64,000 bases of DNA from an uncultured Fibrobacterota bacterium (GTDB lineage: Bacteria; Fibrobacterota; CAYVZU01), in assembly GCA_964455935.1 (NCBI GenBank), contig CAYVZU010000001.1, positions 55,142-119,141 of the forward strand, in the 5' to 3' direction. The notes under the pieces are model-generated. The model was not told the DNA's origin, did no database searches, and saw only the letters and a program-made list of their open reading frames with translations. The position numbers were made by a program, and so were the translations under genes. Position 1 is the stretch's first letter. Every line of letters starts with the position of its first letter. This document shows positions 2,900 through 61,672 of the stretch, piece by piece.

Positions 2900-4366
2900 T
2901 TATTCCATGCCCCAGATTTCGATCTCGCTGATGGGGGTAATGTTTCGCTCATCGCCGGGGTAGAAATCCAGAATCGTGACGCGCACCAGGCGAGTCTGCT
3001 TGACCGGGAGTACGCAACACTGGGCTCCGATTTCATCACGCAGGTCCCATTGATGCGTCGTGCCGTCCGCGAACCCCACCTCCACCGTGCGGGGCCGGTT
3101 GAAACGGCGGTCCACGCTTGAGGCGGCCTGAAGGCCGGAATATAAAACCATGCGCGTCACGGTCACCGGCTTGCGAAACGTGAAGAGCACATAATTCTTC
3201 TCGTTGCGAAGCCCGTCTGCGGCCGCCCAGGCAGTGCCGGTCTCACGATCGGTTAAATGAGGCAGGCCCCATTCCTTATCCGGCCGGGCGGTGGTGGTCG
3301 CTGACAGGCCGGTGCATTTCAGCGGTTTTTCAATTGCGGAACCCGGAATGAAGATCCATGCCAAAACTCCCGCAAGACAGGCGGCCAATGCCAGCGCGAC
3401 CCAGCCCAGCGGCGAGAACAGGTTGTGGCGGAAACCCCGGCGCTCGACTTTTCTGCGGTCGCCCATGCGTCGATCGGTAATCCGTTTATCCTCCTGGCGG
3501 CGGGCCGTGACGGCAGCCGCCACTTTAATGCCGCTCAGCTTCTGGTCCGCCGCAACCGAGTCCAGATCGGCCAGCATTTCGCTGGCCGACTTGTACCGCT
3601 GTTCCTTGTCCTTTTTCAGCGCCTTCAGCACGATCATGTTAAGCCGGACGGGGATATCCTTGTTCAGATCGATCGGCGCCCTGGGCTGCTCATTGACCTG
3701 CTTATAGGCGATCGCCAATGGGTTGTCCGCCGAAAAAGGCGGCACTCCGGTCAGCATCTCGAAGAGCACGACGCCCAGGCTGTAGAGATCGGTTTGCGCA
3801 TCCAGGGTCAGTCCTTCGGGTTGCTCGGGCGACATATATTCGGGCGTGCCCACGGTCATTCCGGTATTGGTGATCCGCGTATTGGCAAAGATCTTGGCGA
3901 TGCCGAAATCGGACACTGCGATCTTCCCGTTGCGATCGATCAGCACGTTGTGGGGTTTGATGTCGCGGTGAATGATGCGGTGTTCGTGCGCATATTTCAG
4001 TGCGCGCAGAATCTGGCGGGCGATTTGAATGGCTTCGCCGACCTTCAACCGCTTCTCGCGGTCGATTTTGCGGTCCAGGCTTTCGCCTTCCACATACTGC
4101 ATCACAAAAAACCGGTGGCCCTCGTCTTCGCCAAAGTCGTAGATCGTGACGATATTGTGATGCTGGAGCATGGAAATCACGCGCGCCTCGCTGTCGAAAC
4201 GATTCGTGAATTCCTTGTTGCGCGATAGCTCGGGCGGAAGCACCTTAAGGGCCACGATCCGGTTTAGCGAGTCCTGCCGCGCGCGGTATACGTCGCCCAT
4301 ACCGCCGCGGCCGATGCGTTCCAGGATCGCGTATCCGGCCAGACGAGCGCCTTCGGTCAATTGCAT
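2900..4366 (-). CDS. Ser/Thr protein kinase with TM segment and C-terminal discoidin (F5/8 type C)-like extracellular domain
   Basis: Hanks kinase motifs GRGGMGDVY, ALK, HRDIKPHNVLI, DFG, TPEYMSPE. One TM helix. C-terminal TAW...NEK...ISEIEIWG resembles discoidin/F5_F8-C. Start chosen at MQLTEG. Confidence 0.8.
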   Translation of the reverse strand: MQLTEGARLAGYAILERIGRGGMGDVYRARQDSLNRIVALKVLPPELSRNKEFTNRFDSEARVISMLQHHNIVTIYDFGEDEGHRFFVMQYVEGESLDRKIDREKRLKVGEAIQIARQILRALKYAHEHRIIHRDIKPHNVLIDRNGKIAVSDFGIAKIFANTRITNTGMTVGTPEYMSPEQPEGLTLDAQTDLYSLGVVLFEMLTGVPPFSADNPLAIAYKQVNEQPRAPIDLNKDIPVRLNMIVLKALKKDKEQRYKSASEMLADLDSVAADQKLSGIKVAAAVTARRQEDKRITDRRMGDRRKVERRGFRHNLFSPLGWVALALAACLAGVLAWIFIPGSAIEKPLKCTGLSATTTARPDKEWGLPHLTDRETGTAWAAADGLRNEKNYVLFTFRKPVTVTRMVLYSGLQAASSVDRRFNRPRTVEVGFADGTTHQWDLRDEIGAQCCVLPVKQTRLVRVTILDFYPGDERNITPISEIEIWGME

Positions 4367-6444
4367 GAACGACCTTTTCGGTGAAGAGCGAAAAACGCTA
4401 GGAATATACACAACACCGCCAAGGCCGACAATGCCAGCCACTCATCCCCGGGCACAAGTCCCAGCGTGACCTTTTTGGACGCGGTGAAATTCCAACGGCT
4501 TACCGTGAACCGCGAAACAAACCGGCTTACGGCCGGCATCTCGTCAAAAGGGGCGACCGCGCCGGCAAAAAGGATCTGCGGAATCAACGCCAACGGAAGT
4601 GCTGCCAGGGCCCGTTCGGTTCGTTGCGCGATCGCCGAGATCGCCAGACCCATGGCGGTTGCGGCCAAGGCAACAATGGAAAATGAGAGCAAATGAAAAC
4701 GCGCGGCTCCTTCCAGAGGAATCGCGGTGTTGACCAGAAAAACGAGAATCCCGGTCTGGACCAGCGCCAGGACCGCGAGAAAAGTAAATTTGGCCAGAAG
4801 GTAAGGGCCGGGCCGCAGGCCCATGCGCCGCTCGCGCTGGAGCAAGCCGTGCTCTTTGCAGATCTCTTTGACGGAATTAATGCAGCCAAACCAGATGCAG
4901 CTGATTCCCATGCAAAAAAGAAGGGGCCACTGGTTCGTGTTACGGCCAAATACAAGAAAGATCAATCCCCCGATAAGCGGCGCCTGGCCCAGCGTTAATA
5001 GCCAATGGGCGGCATCGCGCCGCAGAAGAATAGCTGTTCGGTGGCACAGCAAGGCAAGCTGGCCAAGACCCGAAGGGCGCCGCGATAGCCGGCATTCCGC
5101 GGCCCGGTCTTTTTCGGCGAAAAGCTCTTCACGGTTCTTGAGCCGCGATTCCACATAGTCGCGGTGCAGCGGCGAAGTCCGGAATCGTTCAGACAGGGTT
5201 GCGGAGGACTCGCCCTCGATTTGGCGATAAATGTCGGCGATTTCTCTGCAACCGAAATAGTCGCCCAGGACAGCGGGAGGGCCAAAAAAAATCAGCCGGC
5301 CCTGGTGCATGAGGCCGACCAGGTCGAATTCCTGCACATGGCTTAGCCGGTGCGTGGAAACAAGGACCGTTCGCCGGCGGTCCGAAATCCGGCGCAGAAG
5401 CTCCATTGTCTTCGCTTCCAATACCGGGTCCAGATTGGCCGTGGGCTCGTCCAGGGCAAGTACCCGGGGGTCGGCGGCCATTTCCATGGCCAGACTCACC
5501 CGCTTGCGTTGGCCGCCGCTAAGAAAACGAACCGGCCGGCCTGCGCACTCGTTGAGTTCAAGGACATCCAGCAGACTCTGCGATTTTCGCGCAATGTCGG
5601 TCTCCACCGGCAGGCGAAGCGCGTTAAGGGCAACCGCGAAGCGGACGGTCTCGCGGGGGGTGAGCAGTTCGGCCAGCATGTCGTCCTGGGGAACAAATCC
5701 CGAAAGCGCGCGATTGGGCCGCACGTCAAGGGGCACGGCATCGTAATAAACGCAACCGGCCGCGGGCGCCTCGAGACCGGCCAAAATCCGCAGGAGACTG
5801 GTTTTCCCTGCGCCACTGGGGCCCAGCAATCCCACAAATTCGCCCGGTTTTACGGCCAGGCTCACGGGGTGCAGAATGGGTCTGGTTCCCGCCCGTTTTT
5901 CGATCCCGGTCACGTCGATCCGCATCCCCGAGAAAGGGAGGCGCTGAAGATCGCCATTCCAGACGGCAAACTGTTCCGGACCAATCGAAAGCCGGTCGCC
6001 GTCGGCCAGTCTGGCTTTTCGTTTCCGTCCCGCCGGACCGGCAAACGATGTGTTGGAATGAGCCGTCTGAAGATACAGCGTAATGCCGCCGCTGTGCGGC
6101 TCCACCCGCTGTTGAAAAAGCGTGGAGGCCTGTGCAGGGCGATCCGCATCCGAGGCCTCCTGAATCAGCAGGATAAGAACGGCGTCGGCCGACGCGACCT
6201 CCAGCTCCTGGGTGCCGACTTGAATGCGGTCTCCGGCTGCAATCCGGTCCGCGGCAGCGGGGCGTCCGTTTAGAAACGTGCCGAACGTGCTGTTCTCATC
6301 CAGAAGAAAAAGGCCTGCGTCGCGGCGTTCGATGCAGGCATGACGGCGTGAGCAAAGGGGGTTGTTCAAAACGAGATCATTCTCGAGGGCCCTGCCAATG
6401 CGCAAGGGCCGCTCCTGGGTGGGAGAAAAAGTGCGGGTGATCAC
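4357..6444 (-). CDS. FHA-FHA-ABC ATPase-ABC-2 permease fusion transporter (Rv1747-like)
   Basis: Two N-terminal FHA-like segments. Walker A GPSGAGKTS, signature LSGGQRKRV, Walker B LALDEPT. C-terminal multi-TM ABC-2 domain. Overlaps the kinase start by ~10 nt. Confidence 0.8.
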   Translation of the reverse strand: MITRTFSPTQERPLRIGRALENDLVLNNPLCSRRHACIERRDAGLFLLDENSTFGTFLNGRPAAADRIAAGDRIQVGTQELEVASADAVLILLIQEASDADRPAQASTLFQQRVEPHSGGITLYLQTAHSNTSFAGPAGRKRKARLADGDRLSIGPEQFAVWNGDLQRLPFSGMRIDVTGIEKRAGTRPILHPVSLAVKPGEFVGLLGPSGAGKTSLLRILAGLEAPAAGCVYYDAVPLDVRPNRALSGFVPQDDMLAELLTPRETVRFAVALNALRLPVETDIARKSQSLLDVLELNECAGRPVRFLSGGQRKRVSLAMEMAADPRVLALDEPTANLDPVLEAKTMELLRRISDRRRTVLVSTHRLSHVQEFDLVGLMHQGRLIFFGPPAVLGDYFGCREIADIYRQIEGESSATLSERFRTSPLHRDYVESRLKNREELFAEKDRAAECRLSRRPSGLGQLALLCHRTAILLRRDAAHWLLTLGQAPLIGGLIFLVFGRNTNQWPLLFCMGISCIWFGCINSVKEICKEHGLLQRERRMGLRPGPYLLAKFTFLAVLALVQTGILVFLVNTAIPLEGAARFHLLSFSIVALAATAMGLAISAIAQRTERALAALPLALIPQILFAGAVAPFDEMPAVSRFVSRFTVSRWNFTASKKVTLGLVPGDEWLALSALAVLCIFLAFFALHRKGRSCN

Positions 6445-7605: not shown

Positions 7606-7761
7606 AAAATAAATGGTGCGACGACGGTGAGGCTTGAAGACCGATCATTTTCCGACAGAAGCGGATGCCGACTCGTGGAAAGGCCGAAGGCGTTTTGAAA
7701 GTTGGTCCCAACCCGCGAACGGGGCAACGGCAGCCCTATTCGCGGGCTCCTTCTTGAAGGA

Positions 7762-8373
7762 TCACAAACTGATCAGGTAACCGACATTTACTTTCAGGTT
7801 GCTGTTTCTCTGGTTAATATCATTGGAGCTGGAGACCTTCGTCAGACCGAATGTATAGCCTGCTCCGATTACGATTTTCTTTGCGGCTATGTAAGTCGTC
7901 CCAATGGCCAATCCAAGTTCAAAGGGGCTATAATCACTCCTTAAGTCCAGCATTTCCGCCGTCATTGCGCCGGTCACTGGATTCGTGTTTTCCGTTTTGG
8001 ATTCTGCGGCCAACAGGAGCCCTATTTCCAAACCCGCATTCAGGGCCGCCGCAGGAATCGGGGAAAACGAAAATTGTACAGGTACGGCCAGGTAGCCCAG
8101 GCTTTCAAAGCATTTCTTTGTGTAGATAGGATCGGGTTCCTGGATGATGGCGCCTTTGGTTACAAAATTTACTCCTGCCAACAAACCCATTTTGTCTTTA
8201 AATGGATATGAATAGCTGGCGCCCACATTGAAGCCAAGTTTTGGGCTGGTGTATTCGGCATCATCGCCAAGGTATGTCGACATATTCACTCCGCCTCCAA
8301 CCACCACGTCGCGGGCGGCAAATACCATTGCCGAAAGTGACAGGACGGCAAAGCACACCTTCAGACATTTCAT
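7762..8373 (-). CDS. outer-membrane beta-barrel protein (OmpA-like small barrel)
   Basis: Signal peptide MKCLKVCFAVLSLSAMVFA. Alternating amphipathic beta-strands ending in an aromatic C-terminal residue. Lies in a lower-GC patch. Confidence 0.6.
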   Translation of the reverse strand: MKCLKVCFAVLSLSAMVFAARDVVVGGGVNMSTYLGDDAEYTSPKLGFNVGASYSYPFKDKMGLLAGVNFVTKGAIIQEPDPIYTKKCFESLGYLAVPVQFSFSPIPAAALNAGLEIGLLLAAESKTENTNPVTGAMTAEMLDLRSDYSPFELGLAIGTTYIAAKKIVIGAGYTFGLTKVSSSNDINQRNSNLKVNVGYLISL

Positions 8374-8512
8374 GCAGGGCCTCCTTTAAGAATCTGTACC
8401 GCCATTTAAATGCCAACGTATCTTTGATCCTGCTTTGCTTTCCAGCGCCCTCCTCGGCAACGGGTTGGTTCCAGTGCTTGTCCAAATATCAATGGGCTTT
8501 TCGGCGCCGGCC

Positions 8513-9805
8513 TTATCCCACGCCAATCTTCGCCAGCGCCAGGTAATACGCCGCGGCAATCAGTGCGTAAAGCAAAAACGGCAGCAGCAGTCCCCGGATC
8601 GCTTTGGCCAGTGACGCATCGAAATGCTTTCGGGTCAGAAGCAGGCAGGCATGAATTGGCGAAAGCATCATGCCGATAAATCCTGCCATATAAGCGCCCA
8701 TGTACGTCAACGTCGTGGCCGAAACGGCGCTCTGCACCAGGGGAAGAATCAGAGGGAACGATGCGCCAATGGTGCCAAACATGACCCCAAAGATAAGGCC
8801 CGACAAAAAGGGCAACGCGAAAATTACCCCGCGCACCGGGAGATGGTATCGCACCAGATCTCCCCGAAGGCTCTGCACGGCTCCGCTCTGTTCCATCACT
8901 GCCTTAAACGCGATAATTCCCATGATCATGACCCAGAGATCCAGATTCTTTCTGCCGAAAACCAGGCCCAGCAAATCGCGGCCGGAATACGTATGGTTTC
9001 GCAGGCAATAAATGATCCCGGCGCCCAATCCCACGTAAATCGGCAAATAGGTTTTGAGTGGAAGTCTGATTCCAGCCGTTTTCTCAAGAACCTTCGAGAT
9101 TCCCATGTAGATGAACAGGGTCGCAAATACCAGAATCAGCGGGAAAACCTTCCTAAGGAAGATCCGCTTGTCCTTCTGTTTCAGGACAACGCGATCGAAA
9201 ATCCTGCCCCGCAGGAAGAAGAAGTATCCAATGGCCGTCATGGTTACGCTAAGAGGTATGTTGATGGCCACAACCTGCAGGATGTCAACCCGGGTCAGAG
9301 AAAGAAATATGATCATGCCAGGATACAGAGGCCACCAGAATTCCCAGATGTGGCGAAAGTAGTAGTTGATATTGGTCTTCTGCTCGGGCCTGACGCACGA
9401 GTCCGGAATCGCCGCCTCCACCATGGGGGCCGAAAAAAGCGCTCCGCCCGGCATGGGCAGAAGCCCGATCAAGGCAGGCATTGCGACCAGCTTAATCTTG
9501 GTGCTCTTGATCACATAGCCGAACGAATCAACGATCTGGCGCAGCTGGCCGGCCTTCTCCAGCATCCCGGAAAAGAAGAGAATCAGGGCCATCATCAGCA
9601 CCAACAGAAGGCTTTCCGCCGAGAATGCATTTTGCAGCGCGATCCAAATCGTTGCGGCTGCCCCCATTTTAAACCAGAGCCCGGTGCATAGGACGGCCAC
9701 AAACAAGGCGGCCCCAAAGGGCAGCCGCGTCTTGCCAAGGGCAATAATAAGAACAAAAATCGCAGCAATCTTAACAATGGCCGGCAGCGAGAACAGCATT
9801 TCCAT
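8513..9805 (-). CDS. polytopic membrane permease of uncertain family
   Basis: 430 aa with ~10-12 predicted TM helices and glycine-rich re-entrant-like segments. No ATPase motifs. Confidence 0.55.
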   Translation of the reverse strand: MEMLFSLPAIVKIAAIFVLIIALGKTRLPFGAALFVAVLCTGLWFKMGAAATIWIALQNAFSAESLLLVLMMALILFFSGMLEKAGQLRQIVDSFGYVIKSTKIKLVAMPALIGLLPMPGGALFSAPMVEAAIPDSCVRPEQKTNINYYFRHIWEFWWPLYPGMIIFLSLTRVDILQVVAINIPLSVTMTAIGYFFFLRGRIFDRVVLKQKDKRIFLRKVFPLILVFATLFIYMGISKVLEKTAGIRLPLKTYLPIYVGLGAGIIYCLRNHTYSGRDLLGLVFGRKNLDLWVMIMGIIAFKAVMEQSGAVQSLRGDLVRYHLPVRGVIFALPFLSGLIFGVMFGTIGASFPLILPLVQSAVSATTLTYMGAYMAGFIGMMLSPIHACLLLTRKHFDASLAKAIRGLLLPFLLYALIAAAYYLALAKIGVG

Positions 9806-9986
9806 AGGGAAGAATATACTTTTTCCTGGACCTGCCCAGATACGGTCTCCGGCAACGCCTCATGCAAAGCCGCGGCCCCGTGCGTTGATGAGCCGGGCCG
9901 TATTCTTTTCGTTTCAAGGAAAAGGCCTCCAAGAACGCCATTTGATATTACAACCAGTGCGGCCAGTTTGATATATTTAAAGAAAC

Positions 9987-10307
9987 ATGAAATTCGAGCA
10001 GCAGAACCTCGGCGATCGAATTCTGATCCGGGCCGAGGGCCAGATAGACCGGGTCATTAATGTCGATGCCTTTCGCCAGGGCTTGGAACAGGCGCCGGAC
10101 AACATACCGATTCATATCGACCTTGCGGAGGTCGAATTTGTGGGATCGGCTTTCATCAAATTGCTGATGGAATTCCGCGGCCAATACCCACGCAAAGCCG
10201 CCAATATCCAATTGGTCAATCCCCGGCCCAACACACGGGACCTATTGCATCTGCTCAAACTCGACCAGGTCTTTCCGGTCCTCTCCACAAAGCCGCCCTG
10301 CTCCTGA
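9987..10307 (+). CDS. STAS-domain protein (anti-sigma factor antagonist, SpoIIAA-like)
   Basis: 106 aa. The pattern ILIRAEGQIDRV...VDLAEVEFVGSAFIKLL is typical of the STAS fold. Confidence 0.65.
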   Translation: MKFEQQNLGDRILIRAEGQIDRVINVDAFRQGLEQAPDNIPIHIDLAEVEFVGSAFIKLLMEFRGQYPRKAANIQLVNPRPNTRDLLHLLKLDQVFPVLSTKPPCS

Positions 10308-10547
10308 AGGAGGGCAATGGGCAAGGGGTCAGGAATTAAGCGCCGTATCGGGCGCTCTTGCTTCCGCGGCTTTGCGGCGGCGGCCGGATGAGCCTGAAAA
10401 GTCAAATCAGGGGTTCGGCGCGAAAGCCACAAGACAGAGGAGCTTCGCTACGCCTTTCCATTCGACTTGTCCCTAATTCCTATCCCCTAATCCCTTCTTC
10501 GGGACATGGCTTGCCGCGGAGTGCCTCAATTATTACCTTATGTACCT

Positions 10548-11864
10548 ATGGAAATCTGGGATCAGACCCTCGCCCTTGTCAAAGAAACGGTAAACCCGCA
10601 AAGCTTTCATACCTGGTTTGCTCCCATCGAACCGCTTTCGTTCGAGAACAACACCCTGATTCTCCAGGTCAAGAACAGCTTTTTCTCCGACTGGATCCAG
10701 CATAACTATCTCAATCTCATCCGCAAGACCGTCAAGCGCGCGGCCGGCAGCGATGTGGAGATTGTGATCCACGCCGCCGAACCTTCCGATTCGCAGGCGG
10801 CGCCCGCGGGATTCGCCTTTCGACCTACGTCGTACCGGCCCGATTATCTCAATGACCGTTATGTCTTCGACCATTTTGTGGTTGGCAATAGTAATCAGTT
10901 TGCCTGCTCCGCGGCCCGGGCCGTCTCCGAAGCGCCCGGAAAAACAAAGTTCAACCCGCTCCTTATCTACGGCGGCGCCGGGCTGGGCAAAACGCATTTA
11001 ATTCAGGCTATTGGCCATTACGTCCTGCTTAAGAACGCCGGAGCCAAAGTCTATTACACAACCTCCGAACAGTTTACCTTCGATTTTATCGAGTCGATCA
11101 AAAACAATAAAATAGCCGAGCTCTCGAATTTTTACCGCAGCGCCGATGTTCTCCTCATGGATGATATCCAGTTCTTTATTGGCCGCGAACGCACCCAGGA
11201 GGAATTCTTCCACATCTTCAACACGCTCTATCAGAACCAGAAGCAGATTGTCCTGACCAGCGATCGCGCGCCCAAGGAACTGCAAGGCATGGAAGAGCGT
11301 CTGGTGAGCCGGTTTCAATGGGGCCTGTTCGTGGATATTCAGCCGCCCGATCAGGAGACACGCATCGCCATCATCCGCAAGAAAACCGAACATGAACGCA
11401 TCAGCATCCCCGACGATGTGGTCACGTTCATTGCCGATAATGTCTCATCCAATATCCGTGAACTCGAGGGCAGCATCATCAAGTTGATGGCCTATTCGTC
11501 GTTGACCAAGAAGGACATCTCCCTCGGGCTGGCCAAGGAAATTTTAAAAGCCAATATCCAAACCGAGAAGAAGCGCATTTCGGTTGATTCGATCATCGAA
11601 GCGGTGTGCAAGTTCTATGGCGTCCCCGAGAATGCGATCCGAGGCAAGAGCCGCAGCAAGGAAGTGGTCCTGCCGCGAATGGTCTCGATGTTTTTGGCCA
11701 AACAACTCACAAGCCAGTCCCTCAAGACCATCGGCCTTCAGTTCGGAGGCCGCGATCATTCCACCGTGATCCACGCGATTCAGACAATTGAAGGGAAAGC
11801 CGCGGCGGAAGCGCAATTTCAAAACGAACTCAAATCCATCGAGAAAAGCGTCGGCCCCAAATAG
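10548..11864 (+). CDS. dnaA: chromosomal replication initiator DnaA
   Basis: N-terminal DnaA domain, AAA+ Walker A GGAGLGKTHL, Walker B LLMDDIQF, and C-terminal DNA-binding helix RMVSMFLAKQLT...FGGRDHSTVIHA. Start chosen at MEIWDQ. Confidence 0.9.
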   Translation: MEIWDQTLALVKETVNPQSFHTWFAPIEPLSFENNTLILQVKNSFFSDWIQHNYLNLIRKTVKRAAGSDVEIVIHAAEPSDSQAAPAGFAFRPTSYRPDYLNDRYVFDHFVVGNSNQFACSAARAVSEAPGKTKFNPLLIYGGAGLGKTHLIQAIGHYVLLKNAGAKVYYTTSEQFTFDFIESIKNNKIAELSNFYRSADVLLMDDIQFFIGRERTQEEFFHIFNTLYQNQKQIVLTSDRAPKELQGMEERLVSRFQWGLFVDIQPPDQETRIAIIRKKTEHERISIPDDVVTFIADNVSSNIRELEGSIIKLMAYSSLTKKDISLGLAKEILKANIQTEKKRISVDSIIEAVCKFYGVPENAIRGKSRSKEVVLPRMVSMFLAKQLTSQSLKTIGLQFGGRDHSTVIHAIQTIEGKAAAEAQFQNELKSIEKSVGPK

Positions 11865-14743: not shown

Positions 14744-15517
14744 TCAGGTCTTGATCCGGGTTCCGGGATGTGTTCCCTGCGAAAACCCGTATAGGGCTAT
14801 CGAGCCGGCAATTGCCGCGTTCAGGGATTCGACATTCTGAATATGGATCTTGAGTATGGAGTCGGCCTGCGACAGAATGCCCGGCGAAACGCCGTTGCCT
14901 TCGGAGCCGATCACCAGAAGATACGGCTCATGAAAAATCGCGGAGCTCAGGTCGTCAGTGCCGGCGGCCGAAAGCCCGTAGAGAGTGAATCCGCTTTTCC
15001 GGAGTTCGGCAACGTCCAGGCACAAATTGGCGCTCCGATGAAAAGCGCAATGGATAAACGCGCCGGCGCTGGCACGAATCACTTTGGGAGAGAAGGGGTC
15101 GGCTGTTTGGGAATCGTAAAGAATCTGAGTCACGGAAAAGGCCGCGGCCGTTCGAATCAACGTGCCCGCATTGCCCGGGTCCTGTATGCCGTTGAGCACA
15201 AGAGTATTGATCTTTTTCAGCTTGGACGGCGCCGGAATCTGTGCAACGCCAACAACACCCTGGCTGGTAAGCGTGTCCGAAATTTTGGAGAACGCGCGCG
15301 ATTCAAGAAGTCGGCGGTGTGGAAAATCGCCCAGTTTCGGGAAGTGATGGACCAGATCCTCGTACTTGGACTGATCAAGAAGAATTTCGCGGACGGAATA
15401 GCCCGAACCCAGCAGGTCCGAAAGAATTTTGGGGCCCTCGACCAGAAAGCAGCCATGCTCCCTGCGGCCTTTGGCCTGCTTCAGCGATGTATAGAAAGAA
15501 ACAGGGTGTAAATCCAT
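14744..15517 (-). CDS. TrmH/SpoU-family RNA 2'-O-methyltransferase (RlmB-like)
   Basis: SPOUT motifs LVLNGIQDPGNAGTLIRTAAAF, LLVIGSEGNGVS and ESLNAAIAGSIALY, plus an N-terminal substrate-binding domain. Confidence 0.8.
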   Translation of the reverse strand: MDLHPVSFYTSLKQAKGRREHGCFLVEGPKILSDLLGSGYSVREILLDQSKYEDLVHHFPKLGDFPHRRLLESRAFSKISDTLTSQGVVGVAQIPAPSKLKKINTLVLNGIQDPGNAGTLIRTAAAFSVTQILYDSQTADPFSPKVIRASAGAFIHCAFHRSANLCLDVAELRKSGFTLYGLSAAGTDDLSSAIFHEPYLLVIGSEGNGVSPGILSQADSILKIHIQNVESLNAAIAGSIALYGFSQGTHPGTRIKT

Positions 15518-15651: not shown

Positions 15652-16689
15652 TCAGAACACCACGTCTTCCTTAAATAGAGGAATCAAGGCGCAGAGCATC
15701 AACACGCGCTGCAGCTTGCTGTCCTCGAAGCAGACCGCTCCCTTGTTCGTGGACCCGCCCATGGCGGAAGCCGCGGCAACCTTGTCGACCGCCTTGGCCG
15801 CAATTAGTTCATCAAGCGTGTTGGGATCCACAAATCGGCCCTTGCCCTCGCGTTGCATCTGAAGTTCGAGCTGCGAAATACTGAGCATGATCTTGCCATC
15901 CGCCTGCTTTTTGCCGCTGTGCTCGGCGCTCGATAAAAGGAGCTTGGCAAGGTCAAGGGCCGCCGGTGAAAGTTCCTCGCCCACCATCTTGCCGCCGCGC
16001 AACTTCACCCGAAGATAGGTCAGGTACATTTGCAATGCCGGGGCATTCAGAATCCGCGCATATTCCTTGCCGTTGTGATCCGCCGTGATCACCGCCAGCT
16101 CTTTCAAAATCAGAATGGTCAGGATCTTTTCAGTGTCGCCCGAGCTGACGCCCGTGATGGAGTAGACTTCTTCCTTCAGGCGAGCGAGCGGCACCACAAT
16201 GTGGCCCTCAACCATGGCCAGCTTCTTGCTCTGCAAAAGAAGGAGAATATTAATGACACCGGCCATGTTATTTCTGACCACATCGTCGCCGTTGCGCTTG
16301 TTTGTTTCCCGCAACCGGGAGACAACAATTTTGATCACACTCACAAGCCAGGCGGGAATCTTGGCCATCGTGGCCTCGAGAATGGTCTCGTCGATCACCG
16401 TGGCAATGACTTCTTCAATGACCTGCCCGGTCGCGCCCCGGGGCTGGTTGTCCAGCAACGAAAGCTCGCCCAGCACGCTGCCGGCCCCCAGCACCGCCAG
16501 CTCCACGGTGCGGTCGCCTTCCTGTTTGAGAATTTTCACTTTCCCGGTACGCAGGATATACATCTCGCGGCCGCTCTCGCCCTCGATGAACATCAGCGTG
16601 CCGCGCTTGAAAACCCGGTCACTGCGATTCGCCACGCCCGCGCCGGTTTTAAGCCCGGCGGGGCCCGGAGACGAGGTGGGAGCGTTCAT
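15652..16689 (-). CDS. cNMP-binding domain protein, paralog B (cNMP domain plus ~200-aa uncharacterised C-terminal domain)
   Basis: FKRGTLMFIEGESGREMYILRTGKVKI...GELSLLDNQPRGATGQVIEE is a CAP-effector fold with a phosphate-binding cassette. The linker AKIPAWLVSVIKIVVSRLRETNKR is conserved with paralog A. No evident HTH. Start chosen at MNAPTSS, overlapping the upstream stop. Confidence 0.7.
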   Translation of the reverse strand: MNAPTSSPGPAGLKTGAGVANRSDRVFKRGTLMFIEGESGREMYILRTGKVKILKQEGDRTVELAVLGAGSVLGELSLLDNQPRGATGQVIEEVIATVIDETILEATMAKIPAWLVSVIKIVVSRLRETNKRNGDDVVRNNMAGVINILLLLQSKKLAMVEGHIVVPLARLKEEVYSITGVSSGDTEKILTILILKELAVITADHNGKEYARILNAPALQMYLTYLRVKLRGGKMVGEELSPAALDLAKLLLSSAEHSGKKQADGKIMLSISQLELQMQREGKGRFVDPNTLDELIAAKAVDKVAAASAMGGSTNKGAVCFEDSKLQRVLMLCALIPLFKEDVVF

Positions 16690-17726
16690 TTGACTTTGGC
16701 ATCCTTTTTGTCGGGGGGCTTGGGCGCGGGCGGATGCAAATCCTTGCGGAATCGTTCGATCCATTCTTTAATTTTGCGAATTCGCGCGAGGCTGTCCTTT
16801 TGGAAAAGGATCAGGTTGTCGCTGCCGTCAGCCGTGGGAAACAGGGAAAGCACATCGCGGCGCTGCAAGCTCGAAAGCATGCTCTGGATCCCGGGTACGT
16901 TCTTCTGCGCCATGTCCTCAAGCAGCGCGCGCATAGGAAGCTCGGTCCCCTGCTTGGTCTCCTTGCCCGACTTTTGCGAAACGTAAATGACATTGTTGAG
17001 AAGATCCACTTCGGGATCGGATATCTGCAGTTCGATGAATTCGCGGCCGCGCTCCTTCAAGCGGGTGTATTCAATAAAAAGCGAAAACGCACCCGGGTCC
17101 CGGAACAGGAGAAATTGCCGGCCGGCCGTGTCCTTCCCTATCTCCAGCAGTTCGCGCGCCGTTAGATCGGCGAGAACGGCCTCGGTGGCGGCCCGGCCAA
17201 GACGGCACGTGTAGAAGCTCTCGGTAATGACCAGTTCGTAATCGAGCGAGACCACGCCGCTCACCACGCGCTGATGCCCCTCCAGCAAAAGACCGATCAG
17301 AGACGCGATTCCGGCTTCGCGATTGCGCAAAACACTTTGCCCCACGCGCTTGTTGGCGTCGCGAATGCGGGAGGTAATGATTCGCACTATGCTGGTAAGC
17401 CAGGGCGGGACCTTGGCCAGGATCGAGTTGAAAACAAGTTCATTGATGATGCTGACTTTGGTCGGACGCACGGCCGTCCCGCTCGCCGAGCGGGGCAAAT
17501 TGTCGAGCAGCGACATCTCACCGAGAATGCTTCCATTTCCCAGGCGCGCCAGCTCGACCGGGCCGTCTTTGCTGTCGCGCGTGATGCGAATTTCGCCGTC
17601 CTGGACAACAAACATCTCACGGCCCTTGTCGCCTTCCTTAAAGAGGACTTCCCCTTCCTTGAAGGTGCGGACGTTGGGCTGGGCGGGTCGCTGCCCGGTT
17701 TTTAGCTGCGTGCTGATGAGTGCCAT
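16686..17726 (-). CDS. cNMP-binding domain protein, paralog A
   Basis: FKEGEVLFKEGDKGREMFVVQDGEIRI...GEMSLLDNLPRSASGTAVRP. Linker AKVPPWLTSIVRIITSRIRDANKR matches paralog B. Divergent C-terminal ~200 aa. Confidence 0.7.
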   Translation of the reverse strand: MALISTQLKTGQRPAQPNVRTFKEGEVLFKEGDKGREMFVVQDGEIRITRDSKDGPVELARLGNGSILGEMSLLDNLPRSASGTAVRPTKVSIINELVFNSILAKVPPWLTSIVRIITSRIRDANKRVGQSVLRNREAGIASLIGLLLEGHQRVVSGVVSLDYELVITESFYTCRLGRAATEAVLADLTARELLEIGKDTAGRQFLLFRDPGAFSLFIEYTRLKERGREFIELQISDPEVDLLNNVIYVSQKSGKETKQGTELPMRALLEDMAQKNVPGIQSMLSSLQRRDVLSLFPTADGSDNLILFQKDSLARIRKIKEWIERFRKDLHPPAPKPPDKKDAKVK

Positions 17727-17737
17727 AGGCGATCTTT

Positions 17738-17763
17738 GGAAGTAGCGCGGGGCAAGCCATTGC
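17738..17763. promoter_or_regulatory. perfect 9-bp inverted repeat GCGGGGCAA-N4-TTGCCCCGC in the divergent promoter region between the cNMP operon and fba
   Basis: Sequence gcgcggggcaagccattgccccgcgc. Read directly from the sequence. Confidence 0.3.
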
Positions 17764-18024
17764 CCCGCGCCTCCTGCCTGGATAGAATTAAGTACATAAT
17801 CGCTTTTACAGCGGCATTAGATCAAGAGGACAGGAAGAACCGGACCAGCCGGCCTTGATCAGATTTATGGTTCCTTAAAGGGGAAGACACCATGCGGAAT
17901 TGAGGCCGCCACTCACGCTGACCGCGCCCATCTCGGGATTAATGCCAACACCTTTGAAAGCCTTCCGTGCAGGTGTTATTTTAGATGGCGCAAAACACAA
18001 AACAGCAAACACAAGGAGGCTTGT

Positions 18025-19029
18025 ATGCCAATGGTTCCCATGCGACAGATCCTCGACGAAGCCGTAAAGAAGGGCTATGGTGTCGGCGCCTACAACGTCA
18101 ACAACATGGAGCAAATCCAGGCCATTATGGCCGCGGCCAAGGAGACGCAGAGCCCGGTGATCATCCAGGCCAGCCGTGGCGCGCTCAAATACAGCAACCT
18201 GATCTATCTTAAAAAACTGATGGAAGCCGCGGTCGAGGAAAACCCCAGTCTGCCCATCTGCTTGCATCTGGATCATGGAAACAGCCTTGAATCCTGCAAA
18301 CAGGCCATTGAGCTGGGATTCACATCGGTCATGATCGACGGCTCCCTGATGGAAGACGGCAAAACGGCCAGCGATTTCGACTACAATGTGAAGGTCACGA
18401 AGTCGGTGGTGGAATACGCCCACGACCGCGGCGTGAGCGTCGAAGGCGAACTGGGAACATTGGGCGGCATCGAAGACGGTGTAGGTTCGGGCAAGGTGAA
18501 ACTGACCGACCCCGATCAGGCAGCCGAGTGGATTCAAAAGACCGGTGCCGACGCGCTGGCCCTAGCCTACGGAACCAGCCATGGTGCATACAAATTCAAA
18601 GACAAGCCGACCCTCGCCTTCGATGTGATCTCGGAGGTCCGCAAGCGCGCCCCTGGGTACCCGCTGGTCAGCCACGGCTCATCGAGCGTCCCCAAGGAAC
18701 TGGTGGACGAGGTTAACAAGTACGGTGGCAAAATGCCCAATGCCATGGGTGTGCCCATTGAGGACCTGCAGAAGGCCATCAAGCTGGGCATCACAAAGAT
18801 CAACGTGGACACCGACGGCCGAATGGTGATTACCGCCGCGATCCGCAAAGTCTTTTCCGAGACGCCCGAGAAATTCGATCCGCGCGATTACCTCAAGCCC
18901 GCGCGCGATGCCCTGCAAAAGCTGATTGCCAAGCGCATGCTCGATTTCGGGACCAACGGTCATGCGTCGGACTACAAGCCAATGACCCTGGCCCAGATGC
19001 GCGATTTCTACAAAAGCAAAAAGAAATAG
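18025..19029 (+). CDS. fba: fructose-bisphosphate aldolase, class II
   Basis: MPMVPMRQILDEAVKKGYGVGAYNVNN, CLHLDHG and SHGSSSVP match class II FBA of the FbaA/TagBP family. Confidence 0.9.
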   Translation: MPMVPMRQILDEAVKKGYGVGAYNVNNMEQIQAIMAAAKETQSPVIIQASRGALKYSNLIYLKKLMEAAVEENPSLPICLHLDHGNSLESCKQAIELGFTSVMIDGSLMEDGKTASDFDYNVKVTKSVVEYAHDRGVSVEGELGTLGGIEDGVGSGKVKLTDPDQAAEWIQKTGADALALAYGTSHGAYKFKDKPTLAFDVISEVRKRAPGYPLVSHGSSSVPKELVDEVNKYGGKMPNAMGVPIEDLQKAIKLGITKINVDTDGRMVITAAIRKVFSETPEKFDPRDYLKPARDALQKLIAKRMLDFGTNGHASDYKPMTLAQMRDFYKSKKK

Positions 19030-55901: not shown

Positions 55902-56255
55902 GTGAAGCTTGCCAAGGCAACCCTATCGCACACTCGCAAACCTGAAGAAATTCCTGCTGGCCAAATTTCAGGAAGAAGCACCGGTCTGCGTTGGCGCAGG
56001 GCCATGTTCCATCCTAATGGGCCGCTCTTTGAGGCGGGCGCCGCCTTCTTGCGCGAGCTGGGTGTGCTTGCGCATACGGACCAACAGTCCGGTTCCTTGC
56101 CGGCCCGATCATTCATCGAGAAAGACCCCAAAACCGGTGGCACGTATTTGAAAATTCCCATGCCAAAGCCTGACGTTCTGGCAAACCTATTTCGAACAGC
56201 CGTTTTTCTGCCGGAAGGATTGCGGCAAGCGTTTGGATCCGGCGCCGCCCGATGA
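55866..56255 (+). CDS. 129-aa basic hypothetical protein translationally coupled to jetA
   Basis: Perfect SD AAAGGAG 7 nt before the ATG at 55866. Stop overlaps the jetA start as ATGA, and jetA has no SD of its own. No recognised motif. Confidence 0.5.
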   Translation: MPPSTKPIRKRQVKLAKATLSHTRKPEEIPAGQISGRSTGLRWRRAMFHPNGPLFEAGAAFLRELGVLAHTDQQSGSLPARSFIEKDPKTGGTYLKIPMPKPDVLANLFRTAVFLPEGLRQAFGSGAAR

Positions 56256-57694
56256 ATCTCGACTTTGCCGCTCTCAGCGCCTTGCGAAAGAATCATCCGG
56301 CCTGGCGGCTGTTGATGGCGGATCATGCGCCGCTGATTGCCAGTTTCTTACACCGGGTATTCATCGCGCCCAATGTGCGAACAATGGCGCAGGGCGAGTT
56401 GGTATCGAAGCTGGAAGACGAACTGTTTCAATTGCGCGCAAGCCATGGCGCGGAAGCGTTCCCGCGGGATGCCGTCAAATACCTGGACGAATGGGCACAG
56501 AACGACAAAGGCTGGCTGCGCAAATTCTATCCGCCCAATTCGGACGAGGCCCATTTCGACCTTACCCCGGCAACGGAAAAGGCAATTGCCTGGATCGAGA
56601 CTCTCACGGCCCGCGCCTTTGTGGGGACGGAATCCCGTCTCATGACGGTGTTTGTTCTGTTGCGCCAGATGGTGGAAGGCGCGGAGACCAACGCGGAAGT
56701 CCGCCTGGCCGAGCTACAGAAGCACAAGACCGAAATTGAACTCGAAATAGAGCGGGTTCGCGCCGGCGACTTGAACTTGCTGGATGAAACCGGTCTTCGC
56801 GACCGTTTTCAGCAAATTGCCGGCACGGCGCGGGAACTGCTGGCCGATTTCCGCGAGGTGGAGCATAATTTCCATCTTCTGGATCAAAGGGTGCGTGAAC
56901 AAATTGCCGTGTGGGAGGGGAAAAAGGGCGAGCTTCTGGAAAATGTATTTGGCGAACGGGACGTAATCGCCGATTCCGACCAAGGGAAAAGTTTTCGCGC
57001 ATTCTGGGATTTTTTAATGTCGCCGTCGCGACAAGAAGAATTGTCGGGCTTACTGGAGCGTGTTTTTGAGTTTGCGGCAATACGGGCCATGACCCCGGAC
57101 ACGCGGTTGAAACGTATTCATTATGACTGGTTGGAGGCAGGCGAACAGACGCAGCGCACGGTGGCCAGGCTTTCGCAACAATTGCGGCGCTATCTTGATG
57201 ATCAGGTTTGGCTTGAAAACCGGCGAATCATGCAGGTGCTGAGGACCATCGAGAGCAAGGCCATTGCCGCGCGCGAAGCCGTGCCCGCCGGACCCTTCAT
57301 GGAAATCGATGAGCCGGCCCCGGCTTTCAATCTGCCCATGGAACGGCCGCTCTTCTCGCCGGCCTTGAAGCCGGTGATCGCGAGTCAGGTTCTCGAGGGA
57401 GGCGGCGAGAGCGTCTTGACGGACGCCCTTTTTAATCAAGTCATGATCGACAAGGCGGAATTGGCTGGCCGGATTCGGAAGGCCCTGCAAAACCGCCGGC
57501 AAATTACCTTGGCGGAATTACTGGCGGAACACCCGCTCGCATTGGGCCTGTCGGAATTAATCGCGTATTTGTCATTGGCCGGAGAGGACAGGAAGGCTGT
57601 GTTCGATGAAAGCCGGATTGAAGTGGTAGGGTGGAATGACGAAAACGGCAATCCCCGACAGGCCCGGTTGCCCCGGATTATATTCAACAGGTAG
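56252..57694 (+). CDS. jetA: Wadjet JetA (DUF3375, MukF/kleisin-like)
   Basis: 480 aa. Position and size fit the four-gene Wadjet arrangement. Coiled-coil-rich with a winged-helix-like terminus. Confidence 0.75.
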   Translation: MNLDFAALSALRKNHPAWRLLMADHAPLIASFLHRVFIAPNVRTMAQGELVSKLEDELFQLRASHGAEAFPRDAVKYLDEWAQNDKGWLRKFYPPNSDEAHFDLTPATEKAIAWIETLTARAFVGTESRLMTVFVLLRQMVEGAETNAEVRLAELQKHKTEIELEIERVRAGDLNLLDETGLRDRFQQIAGTARELLADFREVEHNFHLLDQRVREQIAVWEGKKGELLENVFGERDVIADSDQGKSFRAFWDFLMSPSRQEELSGLLERVFEFAAIRAMTPDTRLKRIHYDWLEAGEQTQRTVARLSQQLRRYLDDQVWLENRRIMQVLRTIESKAIAAREAVPAGPFMEIDEPAPAFNLPMERPLFSPALKPVIASQVLEGGGESVLTDALFNQVMIDKAELAGRIRKALQNRRQITLAELLAEHPLALGLSELIAYLSLAGEDRKAVFDESRIEVVGWNDENGNPRQARLPRIIFNR

Positions 57695-57698
57695 TCCC

Positions 57699-58307
57699 AT
57701 GGAACAGCCAAACGCCGCAACCGATGCTTTTCCATGCGTGATGATCGCTCTTATGAAAGGCGTTGTGTATGGAGAGGCGGACGCGGGTCTTTGGCAGAAT
57801 CTGCTGAACCTGCAAAGCCGGGTGCGCGACTATGTTTCGGTCCTGGGATTGGAGCTGATGCTCGACGAGCCCGAGGGATATGCCTGGCTGCGCTCAAGGC
57901 CGGTCGCCGAAGGCAAAGATCCGCTGCCGCGGCTGATTCCCCGAAGACAGCTCTCATACCCGGTGAGCCTTCTGATCGCCCTGCTTCGCAAAAAGCTGGC
58001 CGAATCCGATGCGGGAGGCGGAGAGACGCGGCTGATTCTTAGCCGCGATGCGGTGGTGGAAATGCTCCGGGTGTTTTTTCCGGCCGGAACCAACGAAGCC
58101 CGCCTTGTGGATCAGATCGATGCGCACCTCAATAAGATCGCGGAACTTGGATTCATTCGCCGCTTGCGCGGCCGCGAGGACCTCATCGAGGTACGCCGGA
58201 TTCTTAAAGCCTTCGTGGATGCCCAGTGGCTGGCCGATTTCGATGTGCGCCTGCAAACCTATTGCGAAAAAACTGGCGACTTCGATGAAAAGGGGAAGCA
58301 GGACTAA
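57699..58307 (+). CDS. jetB: Wadjet JetB (DUF4194, MukE-like)
   Basis: ~200 aa acidic protein placed between JetA and the SMC-like JetC. Confidence 0.7.
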
Positions 58308-61300
58308 TGCAGGAGCAGCTCGATTTCACCACAAGCGACCACCAGGCGGGTTTCCGCCTGCATCGGTTGGAGGTGTACAACTGGGGGACGTTCCACCACC
58401 GGGTCTGGTCTCTTTGCCTTGATGGCGCGAACTGCCTTCTTACCGGTGATATCGGGTCCGGAAAGTCCACCCTGGTGGACGCAATCACGACGCTGCTGGT
58501 CCCAGCCCACCGAGTGGCTTACAACAAGGCGGCCGGGGCCGAGGCAAAAGAACGGACCCTGCGATCCTATGTTCTGGGCTATTATAAAACAGAGCGCAGC
58601 GAAACCGGACAAGCGGCCAAACCGGTGGCCTTGCGCGACCATAACAGCTATTCGGTGATCCTTGGCGTTTTCCGCAACATTGGATACGATCAGGAAATAA
58701 CCCTGGCCCAGGTTTTCTGGTGTAAGGACCTACAGGGCCAGCCGGCCCGCTTCTTCCTGGTATCGGATGCGGCCCTGACAATCGCAAAGGACTTCGCCGA
58801 TTTCGGCAATGACATCAACCACCTCCGCAAAAAATTGCGCGTAAATCGTTCGATCGAAATCTTCGATGGTTTTTCGCCCTATGCCGCAGCGTTTCGCCGG
58901 CGTTTTGGTATCGTGAACGATCAGGCCCTGGATCTGTTCCATCAAACCGTGTCCCTGAAATCGGTGGGCAATCTTACGGATTTTGTTCGCCAGCATATGC
59001 TTGAAGCCTTTGAGATCGAGCCGCGCATCGAGGCATTGATTGCCCATTTCGATGATTTAAGCCGGGCACATGAAGCCGTTCTCAAAGCAAAGAATCAGAT
59101 TTCCCTGCTCTTGCCCCTGGTGGAGAACTGCGAGAAGCACCGCGACATTGGGCGACAACGGGAGATATGGCGCAATTGCCGCGATGGATTGCGCGCCTAT
59201 TTCGCTTCGCTAAAGGCCGGATTGCTGGAAAAGCGGATGGATCATTTGGAACAAGAGCAGATCCGCCGGTCCTCCAAGATCGAAGCGCTTACAGAGGTCC
59301 ATCGTGCACTGAATGCAGACCGGGACAGTTTGAAACAGGCCATTGCGGAAAATGGCGGGGACCGCCTGGAGCGGATTAAGGCGGAGATCGAGGCCAGGAC
59401 CGGGGAGAAGGAGAAGCGCCGGAAGCGGGCCGAGCGGTATGACGAACTGGCGGGGCAGCTTGAAATGCTCTCCGCCCAAAACCTGGAAGCATTTGCCTCA
59501 AACCAAGCAGCCTTACGGGCAAATCTCCGCGTGAGTGAAACAGCGGAAACCAATTTGCAAAACGCCTTAACCGAGCTTTCGGCGGACATGAAAAACCTCC
59601 GGCAGCAACACGCGAACCTGACCGCGGAAATTGAATCGCTGCGGCAGCGCCAAAGCAACATCAGCGATGCGCAAATTCGAATTCGCCGCCTTCTTTGCCG
59701 GGACCTGAATCTGACGGAAGAGACCATGCCGTTTGTCGGCGAGTTGATCAAGGTGCGCGAGGAAGAGGTTGCTTGGGAAGGCGCAACCGAGCGGCTATTG
59801 CATAATTTTGGACTTTCTCTTCTGGTCCCGGACAGCCACTACTCCAAAGTCGCCGAATGGGTTGAACACACCCATTTGAATGCGCGGCTCGTGTATTACC
59901 GGGTGCGGCGGGAATCAATGGGCGATCAGCCTGAATTGCATCCCGATTCCCTGGTTCGCAAGCTGGCCATTAAGCCGGATTCCGAATTCTACGGCTGGCT
60001 CGAACGGGAGCTGGCGCGGCGCTTTGATTATGCCTGCTGCGAAAGTATCGAGCGATTCCGCCGGGAAAAGGAGGCCGTTACGCGTGCCGGACAGATTAAA
60101 TCCGGCGGCCAGAGACACGAGAAAGACGACCGTCATCGCATCGAAGACCGCAGCCGGTTCGTGCTGGGCTGGAACAATCAGGCCAAGATCGCCGCTCTGG
60201 CCGGGCAGGCCGGACATCAGGAAAAACGAATCCAGGATTTCGCCGGGGAGATCGTCGTCCGCCAAACCGAACTGGAACGAGTAAAAGAACGTCGAATTCA
60301 AATGGCGCGATTGGGCGAGTTCCCCGATTTTGGCGAATTGGAGTGGCAGCCTCTTGCCGTAATAATTGCCGATCTGGAACGGGAAAGGCAGGCATTAGAA
60401 GCGGCCTCGGACATATTAATGACCCTTTCGACGAAGCTGCAGGCCGTCGAGGAAAAAATCGGGGTCGCACAACAGGAGCTTGATGCCGAGAAAGAGGCTC
60501 GGGCCAAAAACGAGGTGAAGCAGGAACAGGCCCGGCAGATGCTGCAATCCTGTCGGACCGTAATCGAATCCATGCCAATCGCGGATCGTGAGTCCTTGTT
60601 TGCCATGCTCGAACCTCTGAGAACGGAGGCGTTGGAGGAGCATACGCTTGGCGTGGAATCCTGCGACAACCGTGAACGGGACATGCGGGACTGGCTGCAA
60701 AGAAAGATCGATAACGAGGACAGGCGGATTCGCGAGCTGGAAGAGCGCATTGTCAAAGCCATGGAGGATTACCGGCATCAGTATCCGCTGGAGACGCAGG
60801 AGGTGGATGCCGCTCTTGGCTCGGCAACCGAGTTCATGGCCATGCTTCAGCGCCTGCGGGCCGACGATCTCCCCCGTTTCGAGCAGCGATTTAAGGAATT
60901 GCTCAACGAGAATACAATCCGGGAAGTGGCGAACTTTCAGTCGCAGCTTGCGCGGGAGCGCCAGACCATCCGTGAACGCATCGAACGGATCAACAAATCT
61001 CTCAAGGCGATCGAATACAATCCCAGGCGGTTCATTGCCCTCGAAGCCCAGGCCAACCAGGATCCCGAGGTGCGGGATTTTCAGGAAAATCTGCGCGCTT
61101 GCACCGAGGGAGCGCTCACCGGCTCCGAAGATGAGCAATATTCCGAGACAAAGTTCCTGCGGGTAAAGTCTATGATCGAACGCTTTCGGGGCCGCGGCGG
61201 CAGCAGTGAACTGGACAAACGATGGACCGCCAAAGTAACGGATGTACGAAACTGGTTCGTATTCGCCGCCTCGGAACGATGGATCGAGGACGGGACCGAA

Positions 61301-61672
61301 TACGAGCATTACACGGATTCCAGTGGCAAGTCCGGCGGTCAAAAAGAGAAGCTGGCCTACACGGTCCTGGCCGCCAGCCTGGCCTACCAATTCGGGCTTG
61401 AATGGGGCGAAACCCGGTCCCGCACTTTCCGTTTCGTGGCTATTGACGAGGCCTTTGGCCGCGGGTCCGATGAATCGGCCCGTTTTGGCCTCAACCTCTT
61501 CCAGCGTCTTAACCTGCAATTGCTGATCGTCACCCCTCTACAAAAAATCCATATCATCGAGCCTTTTGTGGCCGGCGTGGGATTTGTTCACAGCGAATTG
61601 GGCCGTGAATCCATGCTGCGCAATCTCACCATCGAACAATACCGGGCCGAGCGCGAAGCCCGGCGCGCATGA
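58307..61672 (+). CDS. jetC: Wadjet JetC (SMC/MukB-like ABC ATPase)
   Basis: N-terminal Walker [10 protein letters not shown]...[17 protein letters not shown], long coiled coils, and C-terminal signature/Walker [15 protein letters not shown]...QLLIVTPLQ. 1121 aa. Confidence 0.85.

Follow-up and report, generated by a model that had tools for sequence, protein, structure and literature searches.

The stretch of DNA analyzed here (the window; 64,000 nt) comes from an uncultured Fibrobacterota bacterium (assembly GCA_964455935.1, contig CAYVZU010000001.1, positions 55,142 to 119,141) and carries, on its minus strand, two adjacent genes for cyclic nucleoside monophosphate (cNMP)-binding proteins, referred to as A (16686-17726; 346 aa) and B (15652-16689; 345 aa). 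Both were called as open reading frames (ORFs), and the layout of A was assigned with AlphaFold2 (AF2) and Foldseek. From its N terminus, A comprises a cNMP-binding β-roll, a hinge with a C-helix, two predicted winged helices (WH1 and WH2), and a short Lys/Pro-rich tail; the architecture of B is as in A. The genes meet in an ATGA stop/start overlap (16686-16689, minus strand), with the B ATG at 16689-16687 and the A TGA at 16688-16686, an arrangement indicative of translational coupling. The longest ORF for B would start at 16764, inside A, and that start is not backed by relatives. BLASTP aligned A and B at 34% identity over 253 aa (E 1e-50), far above chance, and in two homology searches the A-type and B-type homologues fell into two clean clades. 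The initial annotation of this DNA had described a tandem paralogous pair with a 4-nt overlap, and the ORFs, the ATGA junction, and the BLASTP score bear this out. Named relatives of the pair are Chitinivibrionales, Chitinispirillaceae, and Fibrobacteres metagenome-assembled genomes (MAGs), and a protein identical to B (P0042) is present in public groundwater metagenome contigs.

The N-terminal half of each protein matches Pfam cNMP_binding (PF00027), at aa 20-104 in A (E 2e-20) and aa 25-108 in B (E 1e-16). The phosphate-binding cassette is GEMSLLDNLPRSA in A (aa 69-81; 17484-17522, minus strand) and GELSLLDNQPRGAT in B (aa 74-87; 16429-16470, minus strand), confirming that both proteins have a CAP-type domain with a complete cassette, as first proposed. 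Among 24 A-type sequences, cassette residues G69, E70, M71, L73, L74, D75, P78, R79, S80, and A81 are invariant; among 54 B-type sequences, G74, E75, L78, L79, and D80 are invariant and P83, R84, A86, and T87 are conserved in at least 90%. The Gly-Glu and Arg-Ser/Gly-Ala positions are thereby kept in both families. The cassette is followed by a hinge and C-helix, which contain VPPWLTSIVRIITSRIRDANKR in A (aa 106-127; 17346-17411, minus strand) and span aa 113-154 in B (16228-16353, minus strand), including SRLRETNKR. The AF2 models place helices after the β-roll at 108-127 and 136-151 in A and a single continuous helix at 113-154 in B. Invariant residues in this segment are P107, W109, I113, I116, R120, R122, D123, and N125 in the 24 A-type sequences and W114, R125, L126, and R127 in the 54 B-type sequences. 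This is the element that had been described as a near-identical linker, and it corresponds to the hinge and C-helix; the proposed pattern fits VPPWLTSIVRIITSRIRDANKR in A and IPAWLVSVIKIVVSRLRETNKR in B, except that B has Lys at the position given as Ile or Arg. It is the best-conserved stretch common to the two paralogs, which is explained by its dual role in such sensors, where it mediates dimerization and also contributes to the ligand pocket of the partner subunit. A phmmer search of the PDB with the hinge and C-helix alone returned no match.

The arrangement of putative ligand-contact residues matches that of Bd1971, a cAMP-sensing EAL phosphodiesterase (PDB 6HQ3/6HQ5; PMC6717892). In A, E70/M71, D75, R79/S80, R120, and N125 have the exact spacing of Bd1971 E58/M59, D63, R67/S68, R108′, and N113, with R120 and N125 lying 41 and 46 residues past R79, the same offsets as those of R108′ and N113 past R67. 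The spacing is equally exact for B E75, D80, R84, R125, and N130. In Bd1971, the C-helix of the partner subunit supplies R108′, which makes contact with the P-loop residue D63; M59 provides stacking against the nucleotide base (PMC12750041, PMC6717892). Ahead of the domain, all A-type proteins carry an LKTGxRP motif (A residues 8-14; 17685-17705), in which L8 and R13 are invariant and K9, G11, and P14 are conserved in at least 90%. The segment is disordered according to AF2, though conserved, and B has a looser GLKTGAG; the motif of A-type proteins could be a docking peptide.

The C-terminal halves had been described as an uncharacterized module with no helix-turn-helix (HTH) or other known output, which is true only at Pfam and NCBIfam thresholds. 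Searches of the full proteins and of the C-terminal halves against these databases returned cNMP_binding and otherwise noise (TAtT, E 0.07-0.15; MksE, E 0.025). AF2 models built from family alignments had overall predicted local distance difference test (pLDDT) scores of 81.7 for A and 83.3 for B, with ~90 over the C-terminal 200 residues (in A, ~90 across aa 140-330), and contained two consecutive winged-helix units in each protein. In A, WH1 spans aa 136-225 (17052-17321, minus strand) with an H-E-E-H-H-E-E-H topology (H, helix; E, strand), and WH2 with a C-terminal helix spans aa 237-327 (16746-17018, minus strand) and carries the conserved motifs YVAQKSG, LDLRRR, and RIKKIKEWLPRF. The corresponding units in B are WH1 at aa 158-230 (16000-16218, minus strand), with an acidic/hydrophobic third helix, and WH2 with its C-terminal helix at aa 242-340 (15670-15966, minus strand), which ends, as in A, in a WLPxFKEE-type motif. 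A and B have similar isoelectric points (~8.3-8.9) and like charges in each domain, and the idea of one basic and one acidic subunit was rejected.

Profile-profile comparison connected the first of these units to classical CRPs. The B family aligned by hhalign with 12 classical CRPs over the entire CRP length, including the winged HTH (wHTH; probability 99.5%, E 3e-23), and B through column 226 reached the last CRP residues. WH1 alone aligned with the classical CRP C-terminal domain at 75% probability (E 2.6e-5), and the WH1 part of the family hidden Markov model (HMM) matched the C-terminal domain of CRP-length proteins (212-256 aa) from other phyla. Pfam HTH_Crp_2 was found in that domain in four of six such proteins checked, and only the one at locus L043 (36.7 bits) scored above the cutoff. 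Searched against PDB sequences with hmmsearch, the C-terminal profile had as its best match the NtcA DNA-binding domain, in register at an E value of only 0.26; an A-only C-terminal profile retrieved nothing meaningful. WH1 is thus predicted to be a diverged CRP-type wHTH homologous to the CRP DNA-binding domain, and the first half of the supposedly uncharacterized module aligns with a known effector domain. WH2 had no Pfam or PDB sequence match and no sequence relatives outside the family. Its weak alignment with WH1 (E 7.5e-4, probability 25%) is compatible with an old internal duplication.

A precedent for the whole architecture was found by structure. Foldseek searches of the PDB with the AF2 models gave 9sfa as the top match for both A (E 7.9e-18, 329 columns, 22% identity) and B (E 2.7e-17, 331 columns, 16% identity), and the alignment covered WH2 of A with the second wHTH of 9sfa. 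Identities in the structural alignments were 15-22%, and classical CRPs ranked below (E 1e-10 to 1e-13, ~200 columns). The 9SFA entry is Bd2879 of Bdellovibrio bacteriovorus, CASP16 target T1298 and a putative transcription factor, which comprises a nucleotide-binding domain (NBD; 1-118), wHTH1 (125-228), wHTH2 (237-335), and a disordered Zn-finger tail and forms an asymmetric dimer in which the C-helix crosses over as in Bd1971 (PMC12750041). The TM-scores of A and B to 9sfa were low (~0.37) because the relative domain orientation differs, a difficulty also described by the depositors for CASP16 predictions of this target (PMC12750041). Likeness of the A and B C-terminal regions to Bd2879 is at the level of predicted fold only. 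Structure prediction and remote homology therefore gave tandem winged helices, for which a solved structure provides a precedent, and no novel fold, and each subunit is modelled as a Bd1971-type NBD, a hinge and C-helix, a diverged CRP-type winged HTH, and a second winged helix, in the architecture of Bd2879.

Conservation of the pair was examined in a scan of one genome per species, which yielded 32 full-length B-type loci, all from Fibrobacterota. Together with an exact protein look-up, 36 loci complete on both sides were obtained, including those of 29 GTDB species representatives. An A-type gene lies directly upstream of the B-type gene in all 36; the two genes overlap by 4 nt in 29 of these loci, and their spacing in the remaining seven ranges from -6 to +1 nt. 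Three seeming singletons were loci cut by contig ends, and neither paralog occurred alone in the Fibrobacterota loci examined. The expectation of a conserved pair was therefore upheld, with both genes retained at every complete locus. Adjacency persists across at least four genomic contexts. Most genomes have the order trmD-rplS-A-B-SpoU-(convergent PAS-GGDEF)-MpsC; one contig has rplU-rpmA-A-B-SpoU; the window and its close relatives L090 and L091 have A-B-SpoU divergent from fba; rplS-A-B also occurs with a convergent tyrS; and one lineage has trxB-A-B-surA, without ribosomal genes or SpoU.

In some relatives the two genes are one. An exhaustive HMMER search of 1.84 billion representative proteins with the C-terminal profile returned only 105 clusters, nearly all of 320-350 aa with the module beginning near residue 130. 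Among the proteins found were two A-B fusions, P0183 (700 aa, from a "Fibrobacteria bacterium" MAG) and P0185 (699 aa), which belong to separate 50%-identity clusters; in each, the N-terminal half is most like A, the C-terminal half is most like B, and both halves contain a cNMP-binding domain. The gene for P0183 (L092, 6001-8103) directly follows ffh-rpsP-rimM-trmD-rplS, the usual site of the separate pair. The tandem winged-helix module was also seen with N-terminal HEAT repeats and no nucleotide-binding domain (P0210, P0216, P0245, and P0203). At L093, the sole neighborhood of this type examined, a sigma-70-family gene (9698-10570) begins 3 nt downstream of the HEAT/tandem winged-helix gene (7689-9695), and this was counted in favor of a link to transcription.

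Strict adjacency, translational coupling, and fusion are, in genomic terms, classical signs that two gene products assemble into a complex, and the interpretation favored here, with moderate confidence, is that A and B each contribute one subunit to a two-subunit, cNMP-gated, CRP-like DNA-binding regulator. An A:B heterodimer is the simplest inference because of these signatures and because all characterized relatives dimerize via the C-helix. In the proposed mechanism, the ATGA-coupled message would yield A and B at a 1:1 ratio, and the two would pair via their C-helices into an A:B heterodimer or, in some lineages, form a pseudo-dimer inside one fused A-B chain. Binding of cAMP or cGMP in both pockets would move the P-loop and C-helix and reposition the tandem winged-helix domains, which would then bind DNA and alter the transcription of a regulon. 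The computations establish the domain identities, the homology to CRP, the similarity to Bd2879 and Bd1971, the conservation of ligand-contact residues, the strict pairing, and the fusions; heterodimerization, the ligand, DNA binding, and the target genes are inferred. DNA binding is the favored output because WH1 descends from a DNA-binding domain and the sole structural precedent is regarded as a transcription factor.

Downstream of the pair, after a gap of 134 nt, lies a gene for a 257-aa SpoU/TrmH-family RNA 2′-O-methyltransferase (14744-15517, minus strand), as expected from the initial annotation, which had placed A and B in an operon upstream of an rRNA methyltransferase. The product matches Pfam SpoU_methylase (E 1.7e-32) and has an MRM3-like substrate-binding domain; in the PDB, it is closest in sequence to 2i6d (TrmH family) and 7qiu (an rRNA methylase). 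The SpoU gene directly follows B in the window, L090, L091, the rplU-rpmA contig, and 25 further complete loci (tblastn identified 26 further SpoU loci, one of which, L015, has the gene ~3.9-4 kb away), and in relatives its start usually overlaps the B stop. It does not adjoin the pair in about seven complete loci (L009, L012, L022, L024, L036, L041, and the fusion locus L092). The relocation away from rplS that is seen in the window, L090, and L091 involved the SpoU gene as well as the pair. Genes for a convergent PAS-GGDEF diguanylate cyclase and an MpsC-domain protein lie downstream of SpoU in most relatives (L004-L040) and are not there in the window; by analogy with Bd1971, the neighboring PAS-GGDEF gene may connect cNMP and cyclic di-GMP signaling.

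Most loci have a terminator-shaped hairpin between rplS and A. In 25 of 30 loci (L004-L041), a box, [TA]GTAT[TCG]AT (mostly TGTATTAT), was observed 20-33 nt past the rplS stop; it is followed by a hairpin with conserved arms, GGAGAAGA ... TCTTCTCC, that resemble Shine-Dalgarno and anti-Shine-Dalgarno sequences, and then by a T-run (for example, L014 3733-3800 and L021 3895-3960). The hairpin has the shape of an intrinsic terminator, and its sequence is unusually conserved where the proteins are only ~45% identical. Rfam searches of the window and nine related loci gave no matches at the gathering threshold.

Upstream, A is divergent from a class II fructose-bisphosphate aldolase gene (fba, 18025-19029). 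The perfect inverted repeat reported between them was confirmed at 17745-17770 (minus strand) in the A 5′ leader, as GCGCGGGGCAA-TGGC-TTGCCCCGCGC (11+4+11 nt), 18 nt upstream of the A ATG, and its region folds into a stable hairpin (81 nt, -32 kcal/mol, z -2.9). Sequence inspection identified a candidate sigma-70-type promoter of the A-B(-SpoU) unit, TTGATC-18 nt-GATTAT (17796-17825, minus strand). Across the window, L090, and L091, no other part of the fba/A intergenic region is as well conserved as this block, which may act as a promoter.

Several results weigh against a DNA-binding regulator. Neither A nor B reaches any Pfam HTH threshold (PF13545 or PF00325), and HTH_Crp_2 was found at E<1e-3 in only 2 of 36 C-terminal sequences of relatives. 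The CRP "RE..R" base-contact columns face G..E.EN, an acidic/hydrophobic sequence, in the hhalign alignment of B; basic recognition residues are present at the start of the corresponding WH1 helix in the A consensus (KKKE), but the A protein of the window has GRAATE there. The winged helices are weakly charged, with net charges of ~+1.5 (WH1) and ~-1 (WH2). The inverted repeat was rejected as a conserved operator, being absent from L090 and L091, which are 78-85% identical, and when the rplS-A and GGDEF/MpsC intergenic regions of 18-30 species were scanned for palindromes and k-mers, no conserved palindrome emerged, only a terminator-like hairpin. The C-terminal profiles (A+B and A-only) never retrieved 9sfa at E≤10, Bd2879 is itself only a putative transcription factor whose own function is unproven, and a simple transcription factor would leave the frequent coupling to SpoU and ribosomal-protein operons unaccounted for. 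Alternatively, A and B might be two independent homodimeric CRP-like regulators with separate regulons, adjacent merely as a result of tandem duplication. The characterized CRP/FNR proteins, Bd2879, and Bd1971 are all homodimers (PMC12750041, PMC6717892), and the divergence of A and B to ~30% identity, together with their different WH1 third helices (the A consensus opens with basic residues, and B has the acidic E.EN), fits different targets. However, the pair is never split in the 36 complete loci and at least four contexts, 29 of which loci keep the ATGA overlap; fusions occur in two independent clusters; no lone paralog was found in Fibrobacterota; and the dimer-forming C-helix is the most conserved shared segment. 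Separate regulators are thus considered possible but unlikely.

The output itself might also differ, with winged helices that bind RNA, the ribosome, or the SpoU/TrmH enzyme and a cNMP that tunes rRNA 2′-O-methylation or ribosome biogenesis. The position of SpoU after B in most loci, usually with overlapping stop and start, its movement with the block in the window, L090, and L091, and the location of the pair, which immediately follows ffh-rpsP-rimM-trmD-rplS in the majority of genomes or, alternatively, rplU-rpmA, all favor such a role, as do the lack of basic recognition residues in B WH1 and the identity of the closest solved methyltransferase relatives, which are TrmH-family proteins and rRNA methylases. 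Yet SpoU is not adjacent in about seven loci and is ~4 kb off in L015, the trxB-A-B-surA lineage has neither ribosomal genes nor SpoU, the terminator-shaped hairpin between rplS and A means that the ribosomal link may be positional, and WH1 is homologous to a DNA-binding domain; moreover, the synteny, which is limited to a single phylum, may reflect a gene order passed on by descent. This output is regarded as distinctly unlikely. Also improbable is a reading in which the A-B receptor, heterodimeric or fused, is not a conventional transcription factor and instead links cyclic nucleotides to the translation apparatus as a switch whose winged helices would recruit or gate the coupled methyltransferase or bind rRNA or ribosomal-protein mRNA; such a switch would explain why, in most of the phylum, the unit comes last in the trmD-rplS operon. 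A translation-linked output is rated a minority possibility because the SpoU link is not universal and a hairpin separates rplS from A. Only a very slight chance is given to Pycsar-like anti-phage effectors or condensin-type tandem winged-helix "kite" (MksE-like) subunits. PADLOC PycTIR/Pycsar effector models match aa 18-138 (E 1e-10 to 1e-6), NCBIfam MksE weakly matches B 230-294 (E 0.025), and a Wadjet system is encoded elsewhere in the window. The PADLOC matches, however, cover the cNMP-binding domain only, with no TIR or transmembrane effector and no cyclase among the neighbors, and the pair occupies a conserved housekeeping position across the phylum, not a variable island. The MksE score (14 bits) is far short of its cutoff (400 bits), the pair adjoins no SMC or kleisin gene at any locus, and the Wadjet system is ~40 kb off and has its own JetB. 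On domain content and genomic context, the defense-system reading was rejected.

The Wadjet system is a complete type I anti-plasmid system (JetA, JetB, JetC, and JetD; 56252-62847; PADLOC E 4e-220 to 0). The window also contains dnaA (10506-11864; Bac_DnaA, DnaA_N, and DnaA_C domains), from which it may lie near the chromosomal origin; a GC-skew profile over the window had no clear switch. In addition, the gene for a Ser/Thr protein kinase (2900-4441) and the end of that for an FHA-domain ABC transporter (4357-6444) overlap, which suggests a phospho-threonine-regulated exporter.

CRP-family receptors are the textbook case of bacterial allostery in a symmetric homodimer encoded by one gene, and to our knowledge, based on limited literature searches, no obligate two-gene CRP-type receptor has been described. 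If A and B pair, the product would be a naturally asymmetric receptor with two dissimilar nucleotide pockets, two dissimilar DNA-reading heads, and four winged helices per complex, useful for engineering and for the study of asymmetric allostery, which is hinted at by the asymmetric Bd2879 crystal dimer. The pair provides a conserved, and probably central, cyclic-nucleotide receptor for Fibrobacterota (Chitinivibrionia-type lineages), as well as a fold and a likely role for ~100 sequence clusters whose present annotation goes no further than "cyclic nucleotide-binding domain-containing protein". Its recurrent pairing with an RNA methyltransferase is a further lead. Nothing in these findings contradicts established principles. 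The pair is ancient, and its function is undescribed for any family member: literature searches found no paper on the A/B family, in agreement with the earlier remark that such paired sensors have no obvious described function.

Among known systems, Bd2879 is the closest in architecture. It shares the NBD-wHTH1-wHTH2 order, modelled in A at ~20-127, 136-225, and 237-327, and a Bd1971-type NBD, whose fold and residue spacing A and B match. Bd2879 differs in being a single gene that forms an asymmetric homodimer, whereas its counterpart here is a pair of obligate paralogs or a fused chain. Its cassette is degenerate (T65/S66), in contrast to the canonical Arg-Ser/Gly of A and B, and it has a Zn-finger tail, whereas the Lys/Pro-rich tail of A lacks Cys or His pairs and B, with no Cys-rich tail, stops 5 residues past its last helix. 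P0241 (378 aa) was tested as a relative of Bd2879 and is not one. From Bd1971, A and B differ in output, with winged helices in place of an EAL domain, and in that Bd1971 is a homodimer. Classical CRP/FNR proteins (Escherichia coli CAP, Mycobacterium tuberculosis CRP, Corynebacterium glutamicum GlxR, and NtcA) have the β-roll, C-helix, and winged HTH in the same order, and M. tuberculosis CRP and GlxR are the best PDB sequence matches of B, reaching ~residue 190. Each is the product of one homodimer-forming gene of ~200-250 aa, in contrast to the fixed pair of 345-346 aa, adjacent or fused, seen here; A and B carry ~120 extra residues, which form the predicted second winged helix, and their HTH is too diverged for Pfam thresholds, with the RE..R motif not kept in B. 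Collectively, these comparisons place the pair in the CRP superfamily as a Bd2879-like member of two subunits or one fused chain, found so far only in Fibrobacterota.

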